46,888 bases of DNA from Candidatus Woesearchaeota archaeon (GTDB lineage Archaea; Nanobdellota; Nanobdellia; Woesearchaeales; JAHJEM01), in NCBI GenBank assembly GCA_016929855.1, contig JAFGHY010000092.1, positions 1-46,888 on the forward strand, read 5' to 3'. Numbering within the stretch: the stretch's first letter is position 1; each line of letters opens with the position of its first letter. Of the stretch, positions 3,441 through 46,331 are shown in pieces. The position numbers and the translations under genes are program-made. The notes beneath the pieces are model-generated. The model worked only from the letters and a program-made list of their open reading frames with translations, made no database searches and was not told the DNA's origin.

Positions 3441-4994
3441 ATGGATGAACTTGCACCAACAGAACCGACTATCCTATCATCTCAAGATACAATAACTCAA
3501 ACAATCTCTGAACATAAAGGACAAGTGAAAGAAAATATTGAATTCGCAATTTACACACTTATAGCCTTCTTGCTTATTGGCTTGATTGTATGTGCATATA
3601 CCTTAGTTAAGATACCCTCAACCGGCGGTACTTCCGCCAGTAGCTTAATTAAAGGAACAATCGTACTAGTGATATTATTGTTGCCCACTATAATTCTTAT
3701 GACAATAGCTGCTTTCTTCGGACATTCTGCCAGCATAAAGTACAACAAAACTTACTTCATCATACTAATACCATTTATATCTGCAGCGGTATCACTGACT
3801 GTAACAATAGCATTTTTTAGGAACTTAGATGGTCTTGCTGGTTTACTAGTGGGAACTATAGTTGCTGGCTTGACAACTTTATTCATATTGCCCACAATCT
3901 TCATTCCGCTAATAATTCATTTACTTTTAAAAAAATTTGGCATAAAGGCAGTGATTGCTAGTATTGCAGTTCTTACGCTGCTACTCTTAGTTGTTATTCT
4001 CACCGGAATTCATGGATTGAGATCTGAAACTGAATTAAACGACATGGACCTCAAAGCAGGTGAAATGATTTCAAATGCTGATAGTGAAAAACAAGAGTTA
4101 CTTGAACTCTGTGATGATTACGGCAACACTGTAGGGAAAGACCAATGCCTGCTTCAGGTCAAAGAAAAGTTCGGAGCTGAAGTCTCGTGTAACGAACTAC
4201 AATTTAATGATGCACAATCCAAAAGCACATGCATAATAATGGATGCAGAAATCAACTTAGATGAAGGATTATGTGACTCTTTGAAAGGAACCAATATAGC
4301 AATTTGCTATAGTCAGGTGGCTGTTGCAAAGCAATCCCTTGAACCATGCTCCAAATTGTCTGGAGCAGAATTTGAAATCTGCGCTCTACCTGCAATGAAT
4401 CAAATAACAACACCAGACAGCTGTCTGAAATATAAGGAACTTTTTTCAGAGGACGGATATTCAGTCTGTGTACGTAAAAATGCGGCATCAACCAACGACG
4501 CAGTAGCATGCACTACCCTTGAAGATTTGGAACAAGCTCTAGCATGCATAAGAAACGTTGCAGCACAAACTAATGATCCAAAAATTTGCGCTCAAATTCC
4601 AATCCTATTCGGTGAAGCATTAATGCAACGAGTGAATGAACGAACCCCCCCTGGAAGGTACGACTTTGAAATAAACGACCAGTATATAACCTGTTTACGG
4701 AGCGCAGGATTTAACATTGACTTCAACACACAACTTAGCTTCAGTCTTACTCCTTGTGTAAGGTTAGAAGGCAAGTCCTGCTCTGAGATTTGTGCAGAGA
4801 AAGGAAAATTATGCGGTAGAGGATGCCCTTATCAAGTTCTTGATATACCTGAACAAGATTACCAAGTCATAAGCTTCCATTCAGATGATTGCTCAGATGA
4901 ACCAGGATTCTCCGGATGTGACATTCAAAATAGCGAGTCAACCTCAGGAATTCGTGCTGCATTTTGCTGCTGTTCAGAACTTCCCACTAACTAG
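3441..4994 (+). CDS. multi-pass membrane protein with a large Cys-rich extracytoplasmic C-terminal domain
   Basis: About five hydrophobic helices fall in residues 35-190. They are followed by roughly 320 aa containing 24 Cys, 13 of them spaced 10-14 residues apart. I recognise no known family. Confidence 0.7.
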   Translation: MDELAPTEPTILSSQDTITQTISEHKGQVKENIEFAIYTLIAFLLIGLIVCAYTLVKIPSTGGTSASSLIKGTIVLVILLLPTIILMTIAAFFGHSASIKYNKTYFIILIPFISAAVSLTVTIAFFRNLDGLAGLLVGTIVAGLTTLFILPTIFIPLIIHLLLKKFGIKAVIASIAVLTLLLLVVILTGIHGLRSETELNDMDLKAGEMISNADSEKQELLELCDDYGNTVGKDQCLLQVKEKFGAEVSCNELQFNDAQSKSTCIIMDAEINLDEGLCDSLKGTNIAICYSQVAVAKQSLEPCSKLSGAEFEICALPAMNQITTPDSCLKYKELFSEDGYSVCVRKNAASTNDAVACTTLEDLEQALACIRNVAAQTNDPKICAQIPILFGEALMQRVNERTPPGRYDFEINDQYITCLRSAGFNIDFNTQLSFSLTPCVRLEGKSCSEICAEKGKLCGRGCPYQVLDIPEQDYQVISFHSDDCSDEPGFSGCDIQNSESTSGIRAAFCCCSELPTN

Positions 4995-5002
4995 GAAAAT
5001 AA

Positions 5003-5222
5003 TGCGGAGGACCGGATTTGAACCGGCGAACCCACTAAGGGAACAGATTCCTCAGGACCCAATTAAGGGCCTGCAAGGCATAACCCGCAGCTGCCTGTTG
5101 AAGCAACCACTCATAAGGCAAGCCTTGTTTAGAGGGAATGGCAAACAGCATCAAGTCATTGCCGAAGCTCATCACTCAAGGTCTCTTGAGTCTGTCGCGT
5201 TTGACCACTTCGCTACCTCCGC
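5003..5222 (-). tRNA. tRNA-Leu(CAA) with a 136-nt intron at position 37/38
   Basis: The reverse complement reads GCGGAGG-TA-GCGAAGTGGTCAAACGC-G-ACAGA-CTCAAG [136 nt] A-TCTGT-TCCCTTAGTGGGTTC-GCCGG-TTCAAAT-CCGGT-CCTCCGC-A. It has a 7-bp acceptor stem, a 5-bp anticodon stem, a 5-bp T stem with a TTCAAAT loop, and a long variable arm (type II). The anticodon CAA corresponds to ttg at 5186-5188. CCA is not encoded. Confidence 0.9.
5049..5184 (-). other. tRNA-Leu intron (136 nt) with bulge-helix-bulge junctions and C-box/D-box-like motifs
   Basis: Anticodon-loop nucleotides C32-A35 (CTCA) pair with TGAG at intron nt 131-134, flanked by two 3-nt bulges (AG|A and GA|A). GTGATGA occupies intron nt 10-16 (plus 5169-5175). 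CTGA occupies intron nt 130-133 (plus 5052-5055). Confidence 0.7.
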
Positions 5223-5250
5223 AAAGGATATTGTTTGGAATTGATATCAG

Positions 5251-5261
5251 GTTTATATTAG
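5251..5261 (-). promoter_or_regulatory. TATA-like box upstream of tRNA-Leu
   Basis: The plus strand reads gtttatattag, i.e. CTAATATAAAC on the minus strand. Its centre is about 34 nt upstream of tRNA position 1. Confidence 0.4.
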
Positions 5262-5346
5262 TTATTGTTGAACTAACCCCCTGAGTGCTTTTCTCCGGCT
5301 GAACTTTGCCCAGCACAAGCCATGACCGCCAGTCACTGGATAACCA

Positions 5347-5366
5347 CAGAATGTCTTGACATTCTG
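5347..5366. other. perfect 8-bp hairpin with a 4-nt loop in a GC-elevated spacer
   Basis: cagaatgt-cttg-acattctg. A second small hairpin, ccagt-c-actgg, lies at 5329-5339. Confidence 0.6.
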
Positions 5367-5444
5367 GCCTAAGTCAGTCTATGACCGACAAAAGAAATGA
5401 CAACAGGAAAAAGCACAAGTCCAAATTGAATCCCAAAACATATT

Positions 5445-5460
5445 CAAGAAAAAACCCCAA
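5445..5460 (-). terminator. T-run terminator after the coiled-coil operon
   Basis: On the minus strand the sequence is TGA-TTGGGGTTTTTTC, immediately after the stop codon at 5461-5463. Confidence 0.45.
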
Positions 5461-5814
5461 TCACAGCATACTGAGCTTCTTATCTATCTTCTTCAACTCC
5501 TCGGCAATATCCTTCACGTCTTCAGAAGTATTCTTGCTTGATATACTATCAGGAACATCCAGAGAATCAGGAAGCGATTTCTCAGACTCAGGAAGATTAG
5601 AGAAATGAGGCAAAGCCTCCTTCAGCTTGTTCACAAGAAACAACAATTCCTTCATGTCCGCACGCAAGCGCAACAGCTTCCTGCCCTTAAGTTCGCGAAG
5701 CTGCAGAATATAATTGTACTTTGCTAGCGAATGAAGAGTGCTCTTGCTGGCCAAAAGCAAATCCTTCCTGAACCCAGTAGGCTCGTCAAGCTGAACAAAA
5801 TACTCCTCTTTCAT
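5461..5814 (-). CDS. small predicted coiled-coil protein (third gene of a triplet)
   Basis: 117 aa from the ATG at 5814 (MKEEYFVQLDEPTGFRKDLL...). The ORF as tracked opens at a TTG at 5832. The ATG lies 1 nt after the upstream stop codon. The sequence has heptad-like K/E/L-rich segments. Confidence 0.6.
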   Translation of the reverse strand: MKEEYFVQLDEPTGFRKDLLLASKSTLHSLAKYNYILQLRELKGRKLLRLRADMKELLFLVNKLKEALPHFSNLPESEKSLPDSLDVPDSISSKNTSEDVKDIAEELKKIDKKLSML

Positions 5815-6717: not shown

Positions 6718-8868
6718 ATGAAAAGAGGCCTCGCAATTCTCCTTGCCATCTTATGCATGCTAAGCCAGGCCAATGCGCTGGTAGAGTTCACAGAAATAAT
6801 GTACAATCCAGAAGGCAATGACAACAACCAGGAATTCGTAGAACTCTTCATACTGAACGAAACATTCAACATTACAGAACTTATTTTCGGAGACATGAAC
6901 CTCAATGATAGCCTCGAGATACTTCAATCTGCTGACTCCAACTACTATCTAATCGTGGAGGAAGGCTACAACTATTCAGGCCTTAACTGCACAATACTCA
7001 CTACAGGCGCAACAATAGGAGACAACCTGGACAATTCAGGTGACACAATATTCATCTACAACAACCATGAAACACTCGACCTTATGCACTATGATGCCAG
7101 CATGGCCAACGGCAACGGCCACAGCTTGGAAAAGCAAAACCAGACATGGGCAGAATCACTTAACGCCGGAGGAAGCCCTTGCCTAGAGAATCCAGTGAAC
7201 CAAACAGAACCTGTTGAACAGAACGAGACCAATCAGACAGACAATAACATCCAAGTAAAAGTCAATATAATCCTGCCGAGTTTTCCGATAGTGAATGAAA
7301 CTTACTTTCCATTCTCTCTCAATCAAGAAATAAACACTGACTACTGGATACAATTTTCATACAATACAACCCTAACTGACGATGTACTATTGAACATAAG
7401 TTCGGAGAACGAATTAAACAATGCAAGCTTGATGTTTAACCAAACAGGCAATATCTGCACGTGCACGCAAATAAATGAATGCTGGTTCAAACAAACAAAT
7501 GCTAGTGCAAACTACACCTGCATGGTGAATGAGAACTGCATCGAGAGCTACGTGAGAAACACGACGCTCGAAGACTGCAACATAAGCCTTGCGCTGCTGT
7601 TGGAAGAGGATTTTATCGATGAGAACACCTCAGTCCACATTCACAACATAATATCTGATGAAAGTTTTGATTACATAATCAACTACTGGGTCACAGACTT
7701 CTTCGGAAACGTCCTGAGCAACAAGACAACAACCAACGACAACCCAAAGTCATACAGGGCAGACAGAGACCAACCTCTGGACATCCTCTATGTGCATAAC
7801 TATCTGTTCACCCCTTCCTGCAATAACATCAACACCCAAGTTGCGAACAGCGAGAGCGTAATATACGTTGGAAGCCCTCCCCCGAACACCACCCACCTGG
7901 AAGTTGAGCTGGAAGATCAGACCTATCACTACGGGGGAGACCTTCCACTAACCCTTCACATTACAAAAGGTGACACGACCAAGCAAGTAATTGAAATAAA
8001 AATCAAAGCAGAAAATAGAATAGTCAGCACTGCAAAAGTCAAAGTCCCAGGAAAGAATGTCGAGATGACTGCAGAACTTGAACTGCCCTTGCCTGAAAAC
8101 TGCCCTGTAAGGTTCCAAGAAGGAGAAGCCATACTCTATATCGAAGGCCTGGATTATAATCTTGAATACACCGTGAATTTGGAAAATGAGGAAGCTTGCG
8201 AAATCGAAGAATGCTCTGACGCTGAAACTGTTGTGAGATACTGTCCTGATGAAAATGAAAAATTTGAAGATTCTGATGAAGCAGTAAACCAGTTGGAAGA
8301 GCTGAACCTAAACAGCCAGGAATTCTCAAACCCTATACTAGAACTGAATATTAGCGTTCACAACAAGTATGATACTGCAAAGAACTACTCAATCAACTCA
8401 TACATATACAAGAACAGCGTATCCTACTCTGGAGATCGGCAGATCAACACCCAAGAATTCTCACTAGAGCCTGGAGAGACAAAGAACCTAATCCTGAACA
8501 ACACATTTATAGGTGTGCAAGGCACTTACAAATTCAAAATACAATTGCTCAGGGCTGACAGGAAAACACCTATTGAAATAACCCAAGACCTCAATATCAC
8601 TGAGAAAGAGATATCTGAAAGCATTCTAAACCAGGCAATCCAAACACCACTACAAAATCCAAACGGCCAAGAAACAAGCAAGAACGAGCTTACAGGCCTT
8701 GTAATCCAAGAAACTAAATCAATAAATTATTTAAATCATCTGCCAGTCTTGGTAGTAGCCCTTTTACTTGGCGGGTTGTATTACAAGAAAAAAGCTGGTA
8801 GACGTGAAAAAAAAAGAAATAAAAGAAAAACTGGACCAGGGCTACATCCAAATAAATGTGATATTTGA
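6718..8868 (+). CDS. large secreted, C-terminally anchored surface protein with an N-terminal lamin-tail (LTD) domain
   Basis: Signal peptide MKRGLAILLAILCMLSQANA. LTD-type motif LVEFTEIMYNPEGNDNNQEFVELF. Dozens of N-x-S/T sequons. C-terminal TM helix LPVLVVALLLGGLYY followed by a basic KKKAGRREKKRNKRK tail. Confidence 0.8.
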   Translation: MKRGLAILLAILCMLSQANALVEFTEIMYNPEGNDNNQEFVELFILNETFNITELIFGDMNLNDSLEILQSADSNYYLIVEEGYNYSGLNCTILTTGATIGDNLDNSGDTIFIYNNHETLDLMHYDASMANGNGHSLEKQNQTWAESLNAGGSPCLENPVNQTEPVEQNETNQTDNNIQVKVNIILPSFPIVNETYFPFSLNQEINTDYWIQFSYNTTLTDDVLLNISSENELNNASLMFNQTGNICTCTQINECWFKQTNASANYTCMVNENCIESYVRNTTLEDCNISLALLLEEDFIDENTSVHIHNIISDESFDYIINYWVTDFFGNVLSNKTTTNDNPKSYRADRDQPLDILYVHNYLFTPSCNNINTQVANSESVIYVGSPPPNTTHLEVELEDQTYHYGGDLPLTLHITKGDTTKQVIEIKIKAENRIVSTAKVKVPGKNVEMTAELELPLPENCPVRFQEGEAILYIEGLDYNLEYTVNLENEEACEIEECSDAETVVRYCPDENEKFEDSDEAVNQLEELNLNSQEFSNPILELNISVHNKYDTAKNYSINSYIYKNSVSYSGDRQINTQEFSLEPGETKNLILNNTFIGVQGTYKFKIQLLRADRKTPIEITQDLNITEKEISESILNQAIQTPLQNPNGQETSKNELTGLVIQETKSINYLNHLPVLVVALLLGGLYYKKKAGRREKKRNKRKTGPGLHPNKCDI

Positions 8869-9403: not shown

Positions 9404-10561
9404 GTGAAAAAATTCTTTACCAGTGAAAGCGTAACAGAAGGACATCCAGACAAGGTCTGCGACCAGATATCTGATGGAATACTTGATGACGTACTCGGAC
9501 AAGACAAGCACTCTCACGTAGCATTAGAGACTGTAACAAAAACAGGATTTGTGATGGTGGTCGGCGAAATGACAACAAAAGGATATGCCGACATCCAAAA
9601 AATAACCAGGGGCGTCTTGAAGAAAATAGGTTATGACGACCCTGCATTCGGCTTCGACTACGAAACATGCGGCGTGCTCAGCGCAATCAGCGAACAGAGC
9701 CCTGACATAGCACAAGGAGTGAACCGCTCCAATCCAGAAGACCAGGGTGCAGGAGACCAAGGCCTGATGTTCGGCTATGCATGCGACGAAACAGAAGAGC
9801 TCATGCCACTACCTATCATGCTCGCACACAAGCTCACAATGAAACTCGCAGAAATGAGAAAGAAACACAAGATAAAATACCTTAGACCTGACGGCAAAAG
9901 CCAAGTCACAATCGAATACGAAGACAATGTACCTAAAAGAGCAGATGCAATCGTGATCAGCACCCACCATGGTCCTGATGTGACTCAGGAGCAGATAAGG
10001 AAAGACATGATAGAACACGTCATTAAACCAGTCTGCAAAGACTGGATTGATGCAAATACAAAATTTTTTGTCAACCCGACAGGAGCATTTGTCCTAGGTG
10101 GGCCAGTAGCAGACAGCGGTTTAACAGGAAGGAAGATTATTGTTGACACCTATGGAGGTATGGGAAGTCATGGTGGAGGTGCGTTTAGCGGCAAGGACCC
10201 CTCAAAAGTCGACAGGTCCGCATCATATATGGCAAGGCACATCGCCAAGAACATCGTCGCCAGCGGTGTCGCAAAGAGATGCGAAGTTCAAGTCGCATAC
10301 GCCATAGGGGTGGCAAAGCCAATGTCAGTGCTGGTCGACACTTTTGGCACAGGAAAGATTGACGACGAGAAACTCGCGAATATAGTCACAGAGATATTCG
10401 ACCTGCGACCAGCAGCAATAATCAAGTATCTTGACCTTCTTAGGCCAATCTACCAGAAGACCGCATCATATGGGCACTTCGGCCGAGACGACCCAGACTT
10501 CACATGGGAAAAGACAAACAAGACTGAAGAGATAAAATCAGCTGTTGGAAAGTTGAAATAA
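9404..10561 (+). CDS. metK: S-adenosylmethionine synthetase, bacterial/eukaryotic MetK type
   Basis: Motifs [32 protein letters not shown] and [22 protein letters not shown] start with GGGGTGA 8 nt upstream. Confidence 0.92.
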
Positions 10562-17844: not shown

Positions 17845-18636
17845 ATGGACCTGAAAAAGGCATTGAATTATGGAATAATAATGCTTATATTCTTAGCATC
17901 AGCCCTGAATATCGGGTGTCAGGAAGCCAGCAATCAAAACAACAGCGTAGGAATAAATGGTACAAATGACACCAATGTCAAGACCGAAGGAGGTGACATC
18001 ATGTCTCAAGCAATCAAACTGCATACCGAAGACGGATTTGAACTGCAGGCAAAATACTACCCAAGTGCCGGCGGACCTGCAGTTATATGCCTGCATCAAC
18101 TGAACCTCAACAAAGAAACATTTGACGACCTTGCCAAAGACCTAAACAAAGAAGGCTTTGCAATCCTCTCTATTGACCTAAGAGGCCATGGTAACAGCCT
18201 GATGCAAAACGGAGATAAGCGAGACTGGCAACACTTCACAAACACTGACTTCCAAAACATGGAATTCGATGTCCTAGCAGGTGTTGAATGGCTCAAGACA
18301 CAAGATACACAAAAAGGCAACATAACAGTAATTGGAGCTAGCATTGGAGCCAACACAGCATACAACTTTGTCTCAAAACACGAAGAGACAGCATCAGCGG
18401 TGCTTTTGAGTCCGGGACTGCTTTACAAGGGAATCGATACTGAAAAAACGATATGGCCCGGAAACAAAAGTCTATTGACTGTGGTCTCCAGTGGTGACTC
18501 TTATGCATACCATTCTGCAAGGGAATTAAACCAGAAGACAGGCAAAGAACTCTTTGTTCTTGAAGGGAATAAGCACGGGACTTACATGCTGGACAAGAGT
18601 GTTAGGCAAAAGATTATTGACTTCCTAACTTCCTAG
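17845..18636 (+). CDS. secreted or lipid-anchored alpha/beta-fold hydrolase
   Basis: N-terminal signal with a lipobox-like LNIGC. Motifs HQLNLNKETFDDL...LRGHGNS and the nucleophile elbow GASIG. Confidence 0.7.
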   Translation: MDLKKALNYGIIMLIFLASALNIGCQEASNQNNSVGINGTNDTNVKTEGGDIMSQAIKLHTEDGFELQAKYYPSAGGPAVICLHQLNLNKETFDDLAKDLNKEGFAILSIDLRGHGNSLMQNGDKRDWQHFTNTDFQNMEFDVLAGVEWLKTQDTQKGNITVIGASIGANTAYNFVSKHEETASAVLLSPGLLYKGIDTEKTIWPGNKSLLTVVSSGDSYAYHSARELNQKTGKELFVLEGNKHGTYMLDKSVRQKIIDFLTS

Positions 18637-19189
18637 ACCAAAGCTTGGAATAAACAGGAGCGCTAGGTGTCAATTGACTGCGAAAAAAAACTATCTCCCT
18701 CAGCCTGAACAGTGAATCCTCCAACAAGAAATCACTGAATTTAATCTCATTTATTGACTTGAGTGCGTTCTGCTCAAGATTCTTCATCCTTGCCAAAGTG
18801 AGATGAATCAAACCGTCCTTCTTTTGTTTTCTCAAAGTTTTCGCCAGCTCATGATTCCTTTCCAGTACCTGAAGGATTTGTTTCAAGGAGATAAAATATT
18901 CTGGATTATACTGGAATTTAAGCGCAAACACTCTCGGCATTCTCGAGTCAGGCAGAACAACAAAATCATCAGCAATCAGGTCAATTGACTTGAAAGAAAG
19001 CTCATCCAATCCTGCAATAATATCCTTGGTTGATGACTCAGAAATTTCTCCCAGAAAACTTGCTGTAATGTGAACCTGCTCTTTACTTATAATCTTGACA
19101 TTACGGAACTGCGACAATTTATCCTGGAATAAGATTACCTTTTCTAGGTCTTCATCAAGAATCCTGTAAGCAATAAAGCATCTCATCAA
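18614..19189 (-). CDS. 2H phosphoesterase (2'-5' RNA ligase LigT/ThpR family)
   Basis: Two H-x-T/S-x motifs (VHITASFLG and IHLTLARM) at the expected spacing in a 191-aa protein. Confidence 0.7.
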   Translation of the reverse strand: MMRCFIAYRILDEDLEKVILFQDKLSQFRNVKIISKEQVHITASFLGEISESSTKDIIAGLDELSFKSIDLIADDFVVLPDSRMPRVFALKFQYNPEYFISLKQILQVLERNHELAKTLRKQKKDGLIHLTLARMKNLEQNALKSINEIKFSDFLLEDSLFRLREIVFFRSQLTPSAPVYSKLWSRKLGSQ

Positions 19190-19229: not shown

Positions 19230-19796
19230 TCACTTTTTCTTCAATACAGGCTTTTTTTCTTCAGACTCTTCATCAGATTCGGGCTCTTTATCAACTTCAG
19301 GCTCGTCGTCTGATTCAGGTTCTTCAGAGTCATCTTTAACCTTTTCTTCAGAATCATCCTTCGACTCTTCGTCTTCAAGCTCCTGATCAGCCTCAGGCTC
19401 ATCCTTCACATCCTGCTCTTCCAAAGACTTGTCAGCACCCTCTTCTGTGTCATCACCAAAGTCCTCTGTACCCTCATCCTCAAGGTTAATATCCTGGTAC
19501 TTGTCCTTTTCCTGGGCTGACTCTTTCTGAGCAGAAGGTCTTGCAGAAATTGCTGGTTCAGCCTTAACTGGTGCTGTCGCTTCGCCTATAGACTCTGCAA
19601 ACGCCACTTTCTTCAAGACTCTGGTAACTTTTATTCTCACTTCGTCGCCTTCCTTAACATTCGGGACAAAGATTACAAAGCCTTGCTTCTTTGCAATGCC
19701 ATCGCCTTTCTCACCAACAGCTTCTATTTTTACATCCAACTCTTCGCCCTCTCTTACAGGGGCTATTCTATTGAACCTATTATTTCCAAATGCCAT
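19230..19796 (-). CDS. TRAM-domain protein with a long acidic C-terminal tail
   Basis: The TRAM/OB-like core is VREGEELDVKIEAVGEKGDGIAKKQGFVIFVPNVKEGDEVRIKVTRVLKKVAFAE. About 110 aa of E/D-rich low complexity follow. ATG at 19796 (the tracked ORF opens at a GTG at 19808). Confidence 0.7.
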   Translation of the reverse strand: MAFGNNRFNRIAPVREGEELDVKIEAVGEKGDGIAKKQGFVIFVPNVKEGDEVRIKVTRVLKKVAFAESIGEATAPVKAEPAISARPSAQKESAQEKDKYQDINLEDEGTEDFGDDTEEGADKSLEEQDVKDEPEADQELEDEESKDDSEEKVKDDSEEPESDDEPEVDKEPESDEESEEKKPVLKKK

Positions 19797-20051
19797 ATTC
19801 AATTTCACCTATGCATCCGGCTTGACTGGCTTATGTAGTGCTAGTTTCATTGCCGACTTTAAAATAGTAGACTGCAAGATTGTTTAAAAACTTTTTGGAC
19901 CTGAGCTGAAAAACACTGCAAAACCGGAAAACCTTTATACAAGGTCTGCAACTCGAGAATTCAATGTCACTCTTGTGCGAATAGCTGGAAGTTTTAACTA
20001 CTGCCCCAATACCAAGAGCAATAACTATCCAATGTTAGTAAAAAATAGTAA

Positions 20052-42452: not shown

Positions 42453-43976
42453 TTAGTCTTGCTTGTTATGCCTAACCCTGCTTCTTGTTTTTTTCTTATT
42501 CTTGATATCAAACATTATCTTTGAATAACTGACAGGATTCTTGATTTTTTGGCACAACCCATTCGGCAAACAAACCCTCAGTTCTTCGTAATAACCTCTG
42601 CAGTTTGGTGGCAGAACAGACTTTTTTACTTGACGATGATACCTAACATGCCCTTTTAAGACGGTCTCGCGCAAAGGTTCCTTGTTCAGCTTATTCCATT
42701 CCACCAGCCTGTCTTGTATGTTTTCATAAGTCCACCCAACATTCCTAAGAAAATTCAGGAGGATGAACAAGCTCCTTTTTCTGCCATCCTCAAGCCCAAG
42801 AAGTATTTTCTTGATACACGGCGGAAAAAATTCCTCTGAAATGGCCTGGTCAGGAATCTCATACTTCTTCTTGGAAGCCAAAGAAACACTTTCAGGATCC
42901 TCAACATCGGGATTGAAATCAAACGCCCTGACAAGAAGATCTGCGGCTTCACCTTTTACAGTATCTTTCTGGTTCAGAAAAACATGATTAAATTCAATAT
43001 TTTCTGGCTTTGCAGAGTTCTTCTCAAACGTCAAAATATCTTTTGTGCTGAAAGGAACTGATACCAAACCAGATTTCTCATGCAGTGAATAAGGCATCCT
43101 ATACATGTGGCGCGGGGCAATCAGCACAGTATCTACTTCAACAATTGAAAGAGGATTAAAAAATTGCCTGAACTCCTTGCTACCACAGGCACACAAAATC
43201 ATTCCTGGAGAGCTTGGTTTGATAATCTTGCCGCACTTGCTGCAGATTTTGTGGTCTTCCTCACCCCGGCTCTCAGAATTCCCGCAATATGGACAAGTAA
43301 AAACATTGTTTAATTCAGTCTTGGGCATGCTTTTCCCGCATTTCACGCATTTCATAGGAAACATGTTCTCATTGGAAACCCCAAACATTATCTGAAGATC
43401 TTCAAAAGAATATTCTTTATTGTCAAAACTAACTGAATCAGGCTTTATTCTGACATAATTTCTCGTGTAATCAAGCAGATACGAGGCCAGACGCCTAGGA
43501 CCCTCTGGAAACAGGTCCTTGATAGAAACATCATTAATTGTTTTTGGAAATGCTTCAAACGCAACACCAATGTGAAAACCTTTATTTCCAGAAAACTTTA
43601 CTGTGACAGAATTGACCCCGTGTTCTTTTATGGCCTTCACAAAAAGATTCGTGATAATTCTCGAAAAGTCCCAGTGCGGACAGTCAATATCCAAAATAAA
43701 ATCCCACCCCTCTCTAATCTCATCCATCTCCTTCCTGGAAATGCCTGAATACAACAGCAGAGGATTAGACCATCTTTCTTCACTGCAATGAAAGCTTGAA
43801 GCTCTCCTCTGCGCAAAGCTCAGAACATCATTAGGGTATGTGATTACATCAGGCCTCTTGCCGAACCGTTCACCAAAAAATACTCCAATTTCCTTCTGCC
43901 TTGCAAAGCCCGCAATAGCCTCGGCAACGTCCTTCCGCTTATAATATGACAGAGTGTAAGATATGTCAACAGCCAT
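42453..43976 (-). CDS. priS: DNA primase: PriS catalytic domain fused to a PriL-CTD-like four-Cys helical domain
   Basis: AEP motifs I (FILDIDCP), II (FSGNKGFHIGV) and III (VEVDTVLIAPRHMYRMPYSLHEKSG). Inserted zinc ribbons (CVKCG..CPYCG, CSKCG..CACG). The C-terminal ~140 aa has FPPCIKKILLGL..GRKRSLFILLNFL plus three more Cys (PPNC, RVC, GLC). Confidence 0.8.
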   Translation of the reverse strand: MAVDISYTLSYYKRKDVAEAIAGFARQKEIGVFFGERFGKRPDVITYPNDVLSFAQRRASSFHCSEERWSNPLLLYSGISRKEMDEIREGWDFILDIDCPHWDFSRIITNLFVKAIKEHGVNSVTVKFSGNKGFHIGVAFEAFPKTINDVSIKDLFPEGPRRLASYLLDYTRNYVRIKPDSVSFDNKEYSFEDLQIMFGVSNENMFPMKCVKCGKSMPKTELNNVFTCPYCGNSESRGEEDHKICSKCGKIIKPSSPGMILCACGSKEFRQFFNPLSIVEVDTVLIAPRHMYRMPYSLHEKSGLVSVPFSTKDILTFEKNSAKPENIEFNHVFLNQKDTVKGEAADLLVRAFDFNPDVEDPESVSLASKKKYEIPDQAISEEFFPPCIKKILLGLEDGRKRSLFILLNFLRNVGWTYENIQDRLVEWNKLNKEPLRETVLKGHVRYHRQVKKSVLPPNCRGYYEELRVCLPNGLCQKIKNPVSYSKIMFDIKNKKKTRSRVRHNKQD

Positions 43977-44078: not shown

Positions 44079-46313
44079 TCATCGTTCTTTTCTGAAAAAA
44101 TCATATAAGCTCTTTGCAGTCTTCTCACCAATAAGACCAACCTTCTGCAATTCAGCAACGTCAGCATTGATAATCTTCCTTATTGACCTAAACTCATCAA
44201 GTAGCTTTTCAGCAGTCAAAGCGCCCACAAACGGGAAAGAACTCACAGTCTTCAACTGCTGGTCGAACATGCCTTGTGGTTTGACAAGACGCGGGTGCAT
44301 TGACTTTCCTCCAGTATCCTGCTCCCTCTTCACCAACAGCATCAGAAACTCTGCAGTCTCTTGAGAATCCTTGGAAAAAATGATTGGAATACGATAATCA
44401 AGAGCTATGGAAGCTAGTAACCCTCTGATTGCATTAGGGTGGACGTTCCTCTGAGAAAAAACATCACCACGACCTTCAATAACAATAATAGGCTTAGGGT
44501 ACTTCTTCAACATAGTAAGCTGAGAAAATAACCTCTTGTCCAGCAGGCTATCCACAAAATCCTTCGCTGTTTTCAACTCAACACAACACTCATCAGAGAT
44601 AAGATAATCGCCCACCTCCAAGTGAGATGGCTCAATCTTAAGCTCTTCGTGCTGTTGAAGGAATCTTGCGGCGCCAGCTGATTTCTCCCGAAAATCAATC
44701 TTGATAGAAAACCTATGATTCTCCGGCTTGAATCCTTCAAGAGTCTTTTGACCTTTATCAGACACACAAGATTTGCCTGAACCAGCATGACCAGTTACAT
44801 TCAAATCGTTAAACACCTGCTTACTCTGAAAACTCTTCAACAAACTAATCATCCTTTTTTCCTTATGATGCGAAGACCATTTATAGCTCTCGTCCCTAGT
44901 GCCTTTTGCAATGAGCACAAAAACTTTTCCAGCATCCTGTCTTCCAGTTCTTCCTCTTCTCTGCACAGTTCTTATGGCTGAAGGTATTGCCTCGTAGAAA
45001 ACAACAACATCAACAGAAGGGATATCCAAGCCCTCTTCAGCCACACTTGTCGCGATAAGGCAATTGAATTCATTATTTCTAAATCTTTCAAGGATTTCCT
45101 GCTGTGCCTTTTGAGACATGCTCTTACCTTTCTTTTTTGTCTGACCAATAAAAAGAGAATTGCTGATTCCAATATTCTCACACAAAGACACAATCTCATC
45201 CGCCTGATCTCTAAACTGCGTGAAAATAATTATCTTGGCATACGTTTTCCTGCTAATTTCCTCCTTCAACAACTTCTCCAAAGCCCCGATTTTCGGGTGA
45301 AAAAATTTCTTTGACATCAAAACATCACAATGGTGCTTTGTTGCCTTGAAAGAAGGATCTGAAGCGAGAGCTTTCACTGCCTTGACAGAAGTAGCCTCTG
45401 CCTGCCGAAATATCTTTGTCAGATATTCATTCAACGCATGAACCCCTTGGGTCTCGATAAGCTCGAGAGCGTGTTGAACCTTTATCGCCTGAGCAACCAT
45501 ACTCAAGGCACGTAGCATCTGAAAGTCCTTGTGGCCCCGCACTAGCTGCTGCTGCAAAGACCTCTGAAGTTCCAGCAACCCCTTCTTGCCGAAGTTAAGT
45601 CCATTCCTCTCAATATCTACCCCAAGAGCATTTAATTCAGAAATCTTGGATTTGAAAGTGTCATCAAGCAATTTCCTTATTCTCTTCAGTTCATCAGGCA
45701 ATTCAACCTCAAGCCAATTCACAGTTGTCTCATTAATATACTGCTTTACATCAGAATCCTCATCAGTCCTGACTTCAATGCGTTCAATGTGCAAGTTCTT
45801 GCACACCCCCTCAATATCCTCTTTCTTCGAACCAGGGCTCGCTGTCAAAGCCAATATCCTTCCGTGGACTGACTGTCTAACATACTCTTCAGCCAAGAAA
45901 ACATAGGCATAACTGCCTGTAGCCCTGTGCGCTTCATCAAAAACAACCAAGGAAACATCTTTAAGGCTGATTTTTTTGCTAAGAACATCATTCTCAAACC
46001 CCTGCGGTGTAGAAAAAATAAGATTGTTCTCCTTGAAAAGCATCTGCCTCTTTTGCGAGGATAAGGTGCCAGTGAATACGACAGAACCAAAACCTTCTTT
46101 GTCAAAGGTCTTCTTGTGCTGTTCAACTAAAGGCTTAGTTGGCGCAAAAATAATCGCCTTGGATTCTGGATAAATTTCGAGGCGATGCTTGACTAACATT
46201 ATTGATATGGCTGTTTTTCCCAGGCCGGTCGGCAAAACCACTAAAGTATTGAACAATGCAGCAGTATCCAATATTTTTTCCTGATATAATCTGGGTTTGA
46301 ATGTAAAGACCAT
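44079..46313 (-). CDS. hef: Hef: SF2 helicase fused to an XPF/ERCC4 nuclease and an HhH domain
   Basis: Walker A motif VLPTGLGKT, DEAH box (VVFDEAHRA), and motif VI QRRGRTGR. The C-terminal ERCC4 core is IKIDFREK...VGDYLISDECCVELKTAKDFVDSL, and the terminal HhH region is VGALTAEKLLDEF. ATG at 46313 (the tracked ORF opens at a TTG at 46319). Confidence 0.88.
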   Translation of the reverse strand: MVFTFKPRLYQEKILDTAALFNTLVVLPTGLGKTAISIMLVKHRLEIYPESKAIIFAPTKPLVEQHKKTFDKEGFGSVVFTGTLSSQKRQMLFKENNLIFSTPQGFENDVLSKKISLKDVSLVVFDEAHRATGSYAYVFLAEEYVRQSVHGRILALTASPGSKKEDIEGVCKNLHIERIEVRTDEDSDVKQYINETTVNWLEVELPDELKRIRKLLDDTFKSKISELNALGVDIERNGLNFGKKGLLELQRSLQQQLVRGHKDFQMLRALSMVAQAIKVQHALELIETQGVHALNEYLTKIFRQAEATSVKAVKALASDPSFKATKHHCDVLMSKKFFHPKIGALEKLLKEEISRKTYAKIIIFTQFRDQADEIVSLCENIGISNSLFIGQTKKKGKSMSQKAQQEILERFRNNEFNCLIATSVAEEGLDIPSVDVVVFYEAIPSAIRTVQRRGRTGRQDAGKVFVLIAKGTRDESYKWSSHHKEKRMISLLKSFQSKQVFNDLNVTGHAGSGKSCVSDKGQKTLEGFKPENHRFSIKIDFREKSAGAARFLQQHEELKIEPSHLEVGDYLISDECCVELKTAKDFVDSLLDKRLFSQLTMLKKYPKPIIVIEGRGDVFSQRNVHPNAIRGLLASIALDYRIPIIFSKDSQETAEFLMLLVKREQDTGGKSMHPRLVKPQGMFDQQLKTVSSFPFVGALTAEKLLDEFRSIRKIINADVAELQKVGLIGEKTAKSLYDFFRKER

Positions 46314-46331
46314 TAACAAAGTAAAGAAGCA

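Follow-up and report, generated by a model that had tools for sequence, protein, structure and literature searches.

Introns in archaeal tRNA genes range from 11 to 129 nucleotides (nt) according to a 2014 review, with medians of 12 to 25 nt per isodecoder and a median of 65 nt in tRNA-Trp (PMC4090602). Once excised, archaeal introns become circular, and in the case of tRNA-Trp the circle is both stable and active (PMC3326292). In the box C/D small RNAs (sRNAs) carried by tRNA-Trp introns, the guides are mostly ~12 nt long, UGAGGA serves as the C or C' box in Pyrococcus, Thermococcus, and Methanosarcina, and AUGA serves as the D box in Thermoplasmatales (supplement 4 of PMC2584109). Trans-acting C/D sRNAs of Pyrococcus target position 34 of tRNA-Leu(CAA) (PMC7994747), and in eukaryotes the intron of pre-tRNA-Leu(CAA) is required for the formation of 5-methylcytidine (m5C) at C34 by Trm4/NSUN2 (PMC11408192). 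The splicing endonucleases of DPANN archaea are reported to be of the alpha4 type with an L3 insert and to be associated with more disrupted tRNA genes (PMC5829648). Here, we describe a tRNA-Leu(CAA) gene of a Candidatus Woesearchaeota archaeon (DPANN), located on the minus strand at 5222..5003 of the 46,888-nt contig JAFGHY010000092.1 (assembly GCA_016929855.1, a metagenome-assembled genome; the whole contig is referred to as the window here) and interrupted by an intron of 136 nt.

The interrupted gene was confirmed by several lines of evidence. The Rfam tRNA model RF00005 matched 5222..5003 on the minus strand over its full length (model positions 1-71) with 40.8 bits (gathering threshold, 29; E = 2.5e-5), and the alignment holds a 139-nt insertion in the anticodon loop. 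ARAGORN called no gene at default settings; in intron mode (-i), it reported a tRNA-Leu(caa) at c[5002,5223], although the borders that it gave the intron are off. When the spliced 84-mer was submitted to ARAGORN, it folded into a perfect type-II cloverleaf, showing that removal of the insert leaves a bona fide tRNA. This cloverleaf has a 7-bp acceptor stem, a 3-bp D stem, a 5-bp anticodon stem, a long variable arm, a GCCGG/CCGGU T stem, and a UUCAAAU T loop, together with G18G19 and the discriminator A73; the four stems and all conserved tRNA positions are intact, with no mismatch except G-U. The CCA end is not encoded after exon 2. Exon 1 ends in ..CUCAAG, with G37 as its last nucleotide, and exon 2 starts with A38-UCUGU, which puts the insert at 37/38. 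The first intron nucleotide is also an A, so that placement at 38/39 would yield an identical product; we chose 37/38 because of the register of the bulge-helix-bulge (BHB) splice motif. An earlier reading of the window, made from its letters alone (the sequence-only reading), had proposed a tRNA-Leu(CAA) with exons of 38 and 46 nt and 136 nt between them at 37/38, and its coordinates and sequence all check out. The clean type-II cloverleaf that it described is borne out by the Rfam match, the ARAGORN intron mode, and the fold of the 84-mer alike, and the view that this is the only tRNA in the window agrees with Rfam, which at gathering thresholds matched no other RNA family there.

The sequence of the locus is reproducible, given that an independent Logan assembly of run SRR13394437 is identical to the window over 9,114 nt, including the whole locus, without a mismatch. 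Gene calls on this Logan contig leave the tRNA interval empty, and it is hence uncalled as protein coding. A 119-amino-acid (aa) open reading frame (ORF) at 4885-5244 on the plus strand, opposite the tRNA gene and overlapping the end of the ORF at 3441-4994, had been dismissed as spurious in the sequence-only reading; we rejected it as well, as the gene-caller track of the Logan contig shows no gene there.

Using a simple in-house BHB scanner with lenient thresholds, we recovered exactly the pairing of C32-A35 with TGAG and the splice-site bulges that had been proposed earlier. The core of the motif is a 4-bp central helix (CUCA/UGAG) with 3-nt bulges, AGA and GAA, on opposite strands, and the helix on the exon (anticodon-stem) side has 6 bp. 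The predicted cleavage sites yield exactly a 7-nt anticodon loop, CUCAAGA. The outer helix had been described as slightly relaxed by one extra C, and the scan likewise gives 5 bp with the C at 5055 unpaired. This extra C can be drawn in two ways: either C130 is unpaired, or C129 is extruded and the bulge is closed by G2-C130. In the scan, two unrelated 31-nt tRNA-Leu(CAA) introns (L024 and L048) proved to have an outer helix relaxed by one nucleotide in the same way. The weight given to this relaxation had been overstated, since it recurs in these introns and fits what is reported of the DPANN endonucleases, whose type is compatible with a slightly relaxed outer helix. Nested or multiple introns were also considered and rejected, as inner BHB-like matches within the insert stayed at the background level of other sequences and none gave a sensible product. 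The features of the locus are listed in Table 1.

Table 1. Features of the tRNA-Leu(CAA) locus, in window coordinates
Feature	Position	Strand	Basis or remark
Complete tRNA-Leu(CAA), exons and intron	5003..5222	-	Rfam tRNA model; ARAGORN -i
Exon 1, 38 nt	5185..5222	-	Acceptor 5' strand, D arm, anticodon stem 5' strand, loop through G37
Exon 1 sequence, GCGGAGGUAGCGAAGUGGUCAAACGCGACAGACUCAAG	5222-5185	-	Sequence reading
Anticodon CAA, nt 34-36	5186..5188	-	Sequence; ARAGORN fold
Intron, 136 nt, between nt 37 and 38	5049..5184	-	Rfam; BHB scan; sequence
Exon 2, 46 nt	5003..5048	-	A38, anticodon stem 3' strand, variable arm, T arm, acceptor 3' strand, A73
Exon 2 sequence, AUCUGUUCCCUUAGUGGGUUCGCCGGUUCAAAUCCGGUCCUCCGCA	5048-5003	-	Sequence reading
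Putative TATA-like A/T-rich element, ACUAAUAUAAACCU	5249..5262	-	27-40 nt upstream of the mature 5' end; predicted from the sequence
U-rich trailer, UUAUUUU	4996..5002	-	Directly after A73; plausible archaeal oligo-T terminator, predicted from the sequence
BHB central helix, 5' strand, C32-U33-C34-A35 (CUCA)	5187..5190	-	Pairs with UGAG at 5051-5054
BHB central helix, 3' strand, UGAG, intron nt 131-134	5051..5054	-	BHB scan; sequence
5' splice-site bulge, A36-G37|A	5184..5186	-	Predicted cut after G37 (5185)
3' splice-site bulge, G-A|A38	5048..5050	-	Predicted cut after intron nt 136 (5049)
BHB outer helix, 5' strand, GACCU, intron nt 2-6	5179..5183	-	Pairs with GGGUC at 5056-5060
BHB outer helix, 3' strand, GGGUC, intron nt 125-129, plus unpaired C130 (5055)	5055..5060	-	BHB scan
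Antisense element, AGACCUUGAGUG, intron nt 1-12	5173..5184	-	Against spliced tRNA nt 31-41; 10 of 12 Watson-Crick pairs
Box-C-like GUGAUGA, intron nt 10-16	5169..5175	-	Last four nt, AUGA (5169-5172), also D type
CUGAGGA, intron 3' end	5049..5055	-	D-like CUGA (nt 130-133) or C-type UGAGGA (nt 131-136)
AUGA (intron nt 26-29), CU, UGAUGC (nt 32-37)	5148..5159	-	Possible D'/C' pair with non-canonical spacing; inspection, weak

In order to place the intron among its counterparts, we compared it with 50 tRNA-Leu(CAA) genes collected by scanning metagenome contigs with a 22-nt D-loop-to-anticodon pattern. Uninterrupted genes and genes with a 37/38 intron each account for 14 of the 50, and about 22 carry a short, non-canonical insert in the T loop. 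The 37/38 introns that we measured are 26, 31, 47-53, 108 (L018), and 111 nt (L027) long, and those scanned in genes with a GCAGG-type acceptor (L018, L024, L026, L027, and L048) have a CUCA/UGAG or CUCA/UGGG central helix. The 136-nt intron is absent from all 50 genes. It is thus a genuine length outlier, the longest documented here, in a well-populated class and at a well-used site. The sequence-only reading had called it unusually long, which is fair given that 136 nt exceeds the range of the 2014 review. Its conclusion that this length implies a specially tolerant endonuclease was overstated, since introns of 108 and 111 nt occur at the same site and since length alone demands no special endonuclease, because recognition rests on the BHB and not on the intron body. 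The comparison of tRNA-Leu(CAA) loci, which it had called for in related genomes and which was made here in metagenome contigs, showed 37/38 introns to be common; none of those recovered is related in sequence to the 136-nt intron.

The collection held further variation. The 108- and 111-nt introns (L018:2809-3000, plus strand, and L027:5300-5496, minus strand) have a strict BHB and share a common 3' half (..AGUUCGCGUUCGUUCUCAUAUCGA..) next to diverged 5' halves; a tyrosine-integrase ORF (3912-5210, minus strand) adjoins the tRNA in L027. The T-loop inserts are ~10-25 nt long, lie between GUUCAA and AAAUC, and occur in genes without an anticodon-loop intron (L009, L010, L015, L016, L020-L022, L025, L029-L035, L040, L041, L043, L045, L047, and L055); presumably, they are non-canonical BHB introns typical of one lineage. 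The pattern of the 3' T arm and acceptor retrieved from the genome collection only uninterrupted genes, namely, tRNA-Leu(CAA) of Methanocellales and tRNA-Leu(GAG) of Thermoplasmata. The latter are apparently perfect tRNA-Leu(GAG) genes on Thermoplasmata contigs from metagenome-assembled genomes (L004:4949-5033 and L005:1295-1379, both minus strand), which have the same T arm and acceptor as the window tRNA and an archaeal RNase P RNA gene ~2.4 kb away. Rfam at gathering thresholds listed the RNase P RNAs of these two contigs and not their tRNA-Leu(GAG).

We consider it very probable that the locus is a functional Woesearchaeota tRNA-Leu(CAA) gene with a 136-nt, protein-spliced BHB intron at 37/38, the body of which is most likely a passenger. 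The intron is extreme within a known class, as an outlier in length only, and calls for no new mechanism. The A/T-rich element upstream and the UUAUUUU trailer would fit an expressed archaeal tRNA gene, and transcription would start from the former as promoter and end at the latter. In the folded pre-tRNA, C32-A35 would pair with intron nt 131-134, leaving two 3-nt bulges 4 bp apart. Following the established pathway, the archaeal splicing endonuclease would cut after G37 and after intron nt 136, and an RtcB-type ligase would join the exons into the 84-nt type-II tRNA, with the intron being circularised. Most likely, only the BHB matters for removal. The notion of a passenger is further supported by the lack of a second copy of the intron in the window or in any of the 64 fetched loci, and by the observation that the intron folded alone is not unusually structured or stable (z = -1.51).

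Several points weigh against this interpretation. Excision of the 136-nt intron from the pre-tRNA is a step that we infer, and the genes for the splicing endonuclease and the ligase are not on the 46.9-kb contig. The outer helix is not strict, amounting to 1 bp (G2-C130) under strict pairing and to 5 bp if one C is left unpaired. The folding of the pre-tRNA, which had been proposed as a check, gave a divided answer: the BHB can form in the right register, but it is not part of the minimum-energy fold. In a nearest-neighbour energy model, the unconstrained minimum was -86.1 kcal/mol, compared with -82.9 kcal/mol when the cloverleaf stems were forced, -78.0 kcal/mol when the BHB core was forced as well, and -75.3 kcal/mol when the outer helix was added, which puts the BHB conformer 8-11 kcal/mol above the minimum. 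What favors the unconstrained fold is a 7-bp hairpin between intron nt 5-11 (CUUGAGU) and A31-G37, which sequesters the anticodon loop. The passenger role of the intron body, in turn, is challenged by a C/D-like unit in the circular intron, to which we return below.

The same energy gap and relaxed outer helix would be compatible with a disabled copy, be it a pseudogene or an allele that splices poorly, with its anticodon loop trapped in the 7-bp hairpin; moreover, one contig of the genome was surveyed, and a second copy of tRNA-Leu(CAA) may lie elsewhere. We nevertheless regard a disabled copy as quite improbable, given the intact stems and conserved positions of the tRNA, the exact BHB core in the right register, the presence of the A/T-rich signal upstream and the oligo-U signal downstream, and the recurrence of the identical relaxed geometry in other tRNA-Leu(CAA) introns. 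Alternative pairings that compete with the BHB are compatible with splicing in tRNA-Trp. A redundant copy would also be unusual, as archaea usually have a single gene per isoacceptor (PMC4307357). It is hardly credible that the insert is a group I or group II self-splicing intron, the remnant of a mobile element, or an assembly chimera. Group I introns do occur in the anticodon loop of bacterial tRNA genes and are reported to be widespread in archaea (PMC6125680), and tRNA genes are common integration sites. However, Rfam matched no intron family over the window at gathering thresholds, nor over 4700-5500 at E values of up to 10, and 136 nt is too short for group I or II ribozymes, the P1-P9 core of group I introns alone exceeding 200 nt. 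A mobile origin is at odds with the lack of a repeat or second copy, on which grounds we rejected the intron as repeated or mobile sequence, and with the lack of an integrase near the tRNA; a chimera is at odds with the identical sequence obtained by a second assembler. The intron resembles the tRNA body no more than shuffled sequence does; a partial tRNA duplication was rejected, as the resemblance of CCCUUAAUUGGGU to the variable arm CCCUUAGUGGGU scored exactly at the shuffle mean.

The alternative that bears on the intron body, and which we hold to be rather unlikely, is that the excised circular intron carries a box C/D-type guide for 2'-O-methylation of the wobble C34 of its own tRNA. By analogy with the tRNA-Trp intron, such a guide unit might, if doubtfully, be read only after circularisation has joined nt 136 to nt 1, as UGAGGA (131-136), AGACCUUGAGUG (1-12), and AUGA (13-16). 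In this arrangement, the guide nucleotide G8, the fifth upstream of AUGA, pairs with C34 (N+5 position). In its favor, UGAGGA and AUGA are genuine C/C' and D variants of the tRNA-Trp intron sRNAs, C34 of tRNA-Leu(CAA) is a known C/D sRNA target in Pyrococcus, and a circular form is the expected fate of an excised archaeal intron, as mentioned above. In shuffle tests with the UGAG of the BHB held in place, 13 of 200,000 shuffles produced a C-(11..13 nt)-D unit that makes 10 or more Watson-Crick pairs with the tRNA; when G-U pairs were permitted, 3 of 100,000 produced one that has C34 at N+5. Such a unit is absent from 10 other tRNA-Leu(CAA) introns, and RUGAUGA is rare in the contig (19 occurrences in 93.8 kb, counting both strands). 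Against this, the unit was recognised post hoc. A working C/D ribonucleoprotein needs two K-turn motifs, but the partner boxes in the intron are poor: UGAUGC (nt 32-37), the best candidate for C', departs from the consensus in its last base, and the only D candidate for UGAGGA is AUGA at nt 71-74, which lies 33 nt from C' instead of the expected ~12. No closing stems form, and the pairing of the guide with the tRNA is broken by a mismatch at A38 and is contiguous over only 7 pairs. In the permissive Rfam search over 4700-5500, the only relevant match was a chance-level snoRNA (SNORD59, E = 5.8), fibrillarin, Nop5, and L7Ae are not on the contig, and searches by RNase J or flanking-ORF homology found no close relatives in which conservation could be assessed. 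The linear intron, too, has a box C (GUGAUGA) near its 5' end and a CUGA near its 3' end, as in a tRNA-Trp-type sRNA, although the BHB, which requires the UGAG within CUGAGGA, already fixes three of the four bases of this CUGA. We rejected a canonical linear C/D sRNA with these boxes, since its spacers would be 9 and 92 nt long with a 2-nt D'-C' loop and neither of its guides matches this tRNA; complementarity with C34 at N+5 appears only once the intron ends are joined. The window as a whole yielded no full C/D sRNA pattern. If the circular guide were real, it would be the first guide in an intron of a tRNA other than tRNA-Trp, and also the first to have its guide unit created by intron circularisation; it would hint that introns of this kind can stem from a circular guide sRNA that was inserted where its own target lies. 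Confirmation would mean that the use of an intron as methylation guide is not confined to tRNA-Trp, and circularisation would gain a constructive role.

The interrupted tRNA-Leu(CAA) gene has practical consequences for annotation. The gene is invisible to a default tRNA search, as ARAGORN misses it without intron mode and misplaces its borders with it. Therefore, the genome could be wrongly scored as lacking a UUG-decoding tRNA-Leu, which would affect claims on the completeness and codon usage of DPANN genomes.

The archaeal nature of the host is supported by the gene content of the contig. It encodes PCNA, archaeal RNase J, GyrA, ScpB, a full archaeal ribosomal-protein operon with SecY (L19e, L32e, and S4e are among the proteins), PheRS alpha and beta, a RadA-like ATPase, a primase that is probably a PriS-PriL fusion, and a Hef-type helicase-nuclease. 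The lineage is essentially unsampled, because RNase J is distant from its relatives and the ORFs flanking the tRNA have only partial homologues or none. The next-best RNase J homologue is only 55-56% identical, and on the contigs with RNase J homologues (≤56% identical) the gene adjoins PCNA, with no tRNA nearby. The 517-aa ORF beside the tRNA (3441-4994, plus strand) has zero homologues among 5.8 billion proteins, while the 716-aa ORF on the other side (6718-8868, plus strand) matches lamin-tail-domain proteins of other Woesearchaeota, mostly over ~20-30% of its length; neither has a Pfam or NCBIfam match.

Further genes of the window deserve mention. A single 507-aa ORF (42453-43976, minus strand) matches the families of both primase subunits, small and large, which points to a fused PriS-PriL, although the large-subunit match is weak (24.1 bits, with no stretch passing alone). 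The Hef-type protein, a DEAD helicase with ERCC4 nuclease and HhH domains, is encoded beside it (44079-46319, minus strand). At 9404-10561 (plus strand), preceded by an MJ0538-family ORF, the contig has a MetK of the bacterial type (TIGR01034, 605 bits) instead of the archaeal one. A LigT-like 2H phosphoesterase, of the 2'-5' RNA ligase/cyclic phosphodiesterase family, and a TRAM-domain protein are neighbors (18614-19189 and 19230-19808, both minus strand); proteins of these kinds have RNA-end or tRNA-related functions, and nothing ties either to the intron.

When the locus is set against the systems outlined at the beginning, the likeness to the eukaryotic pre-tRNA-Leu(CAA) lies in the isoacceptor, the intron position, and the pairing of the intron with the anticodon loop, which extends the anticodon stem (PMC11408192). 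The eukaryotic introns differ in being short and in being recognised by a ruler mechanism instead of a BHB, and m5C34 is a base methylation by a stand-alone enzyme, so that nothing here bears on m5C. The trans-acting C34 sRNAs of Pyrococcus (PMC7994747) share the predicted target nucleotide and the guide logic with the candidate unit; they are, however, independent genes with canonical boxes, whereas the candidate guide lies inside the intron of its own target. The tRNA-Trp(CCA) intron with its nested box C/D sRNA (103-105 nt in Haloferax volcanii; sR50 in Pyrococcus) is likewise long and located at 37/38. Both introns have C-type and D-type boxes at their two ends. In both, an antisense to the host anticodon loop, which is a candidate guide in the present intron, puts C34 five nt upstream of a D-type box and competes with the BHB in its pairing, and a circular excised form is expected. 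In contrast, the host here is a tRNA-Leu, circularisation is needed to bring the C-guide-D unit together, a U39 guide is lacking, the C'/D' partners and the 12-nt spacings are non-canonical, and the boxes are known from one locus only.

The closest match is with canonical 37/38 BHB introns. The 136-nt intron differs from them in its length (compared with 11-129 nt in PMC4090602 and 26-111 nt in our sample), in the one extra C between the outer and central helices, and in its sequence, which is unrelated to that of any other intron recovered. It shares with them the insertion one nucleotide 3' of the anticodon, the pairing of nt 32-35 with the 3' end of the intron in a 4-bp helix, and two 3-nt bulges, each with its predicted cut after the second nucleotide. 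The locus thus adds a DPANN example of a slightly relaxed BHB and extends the length range of protein-spliced tRNA introns beyond that given in the 2014 review.

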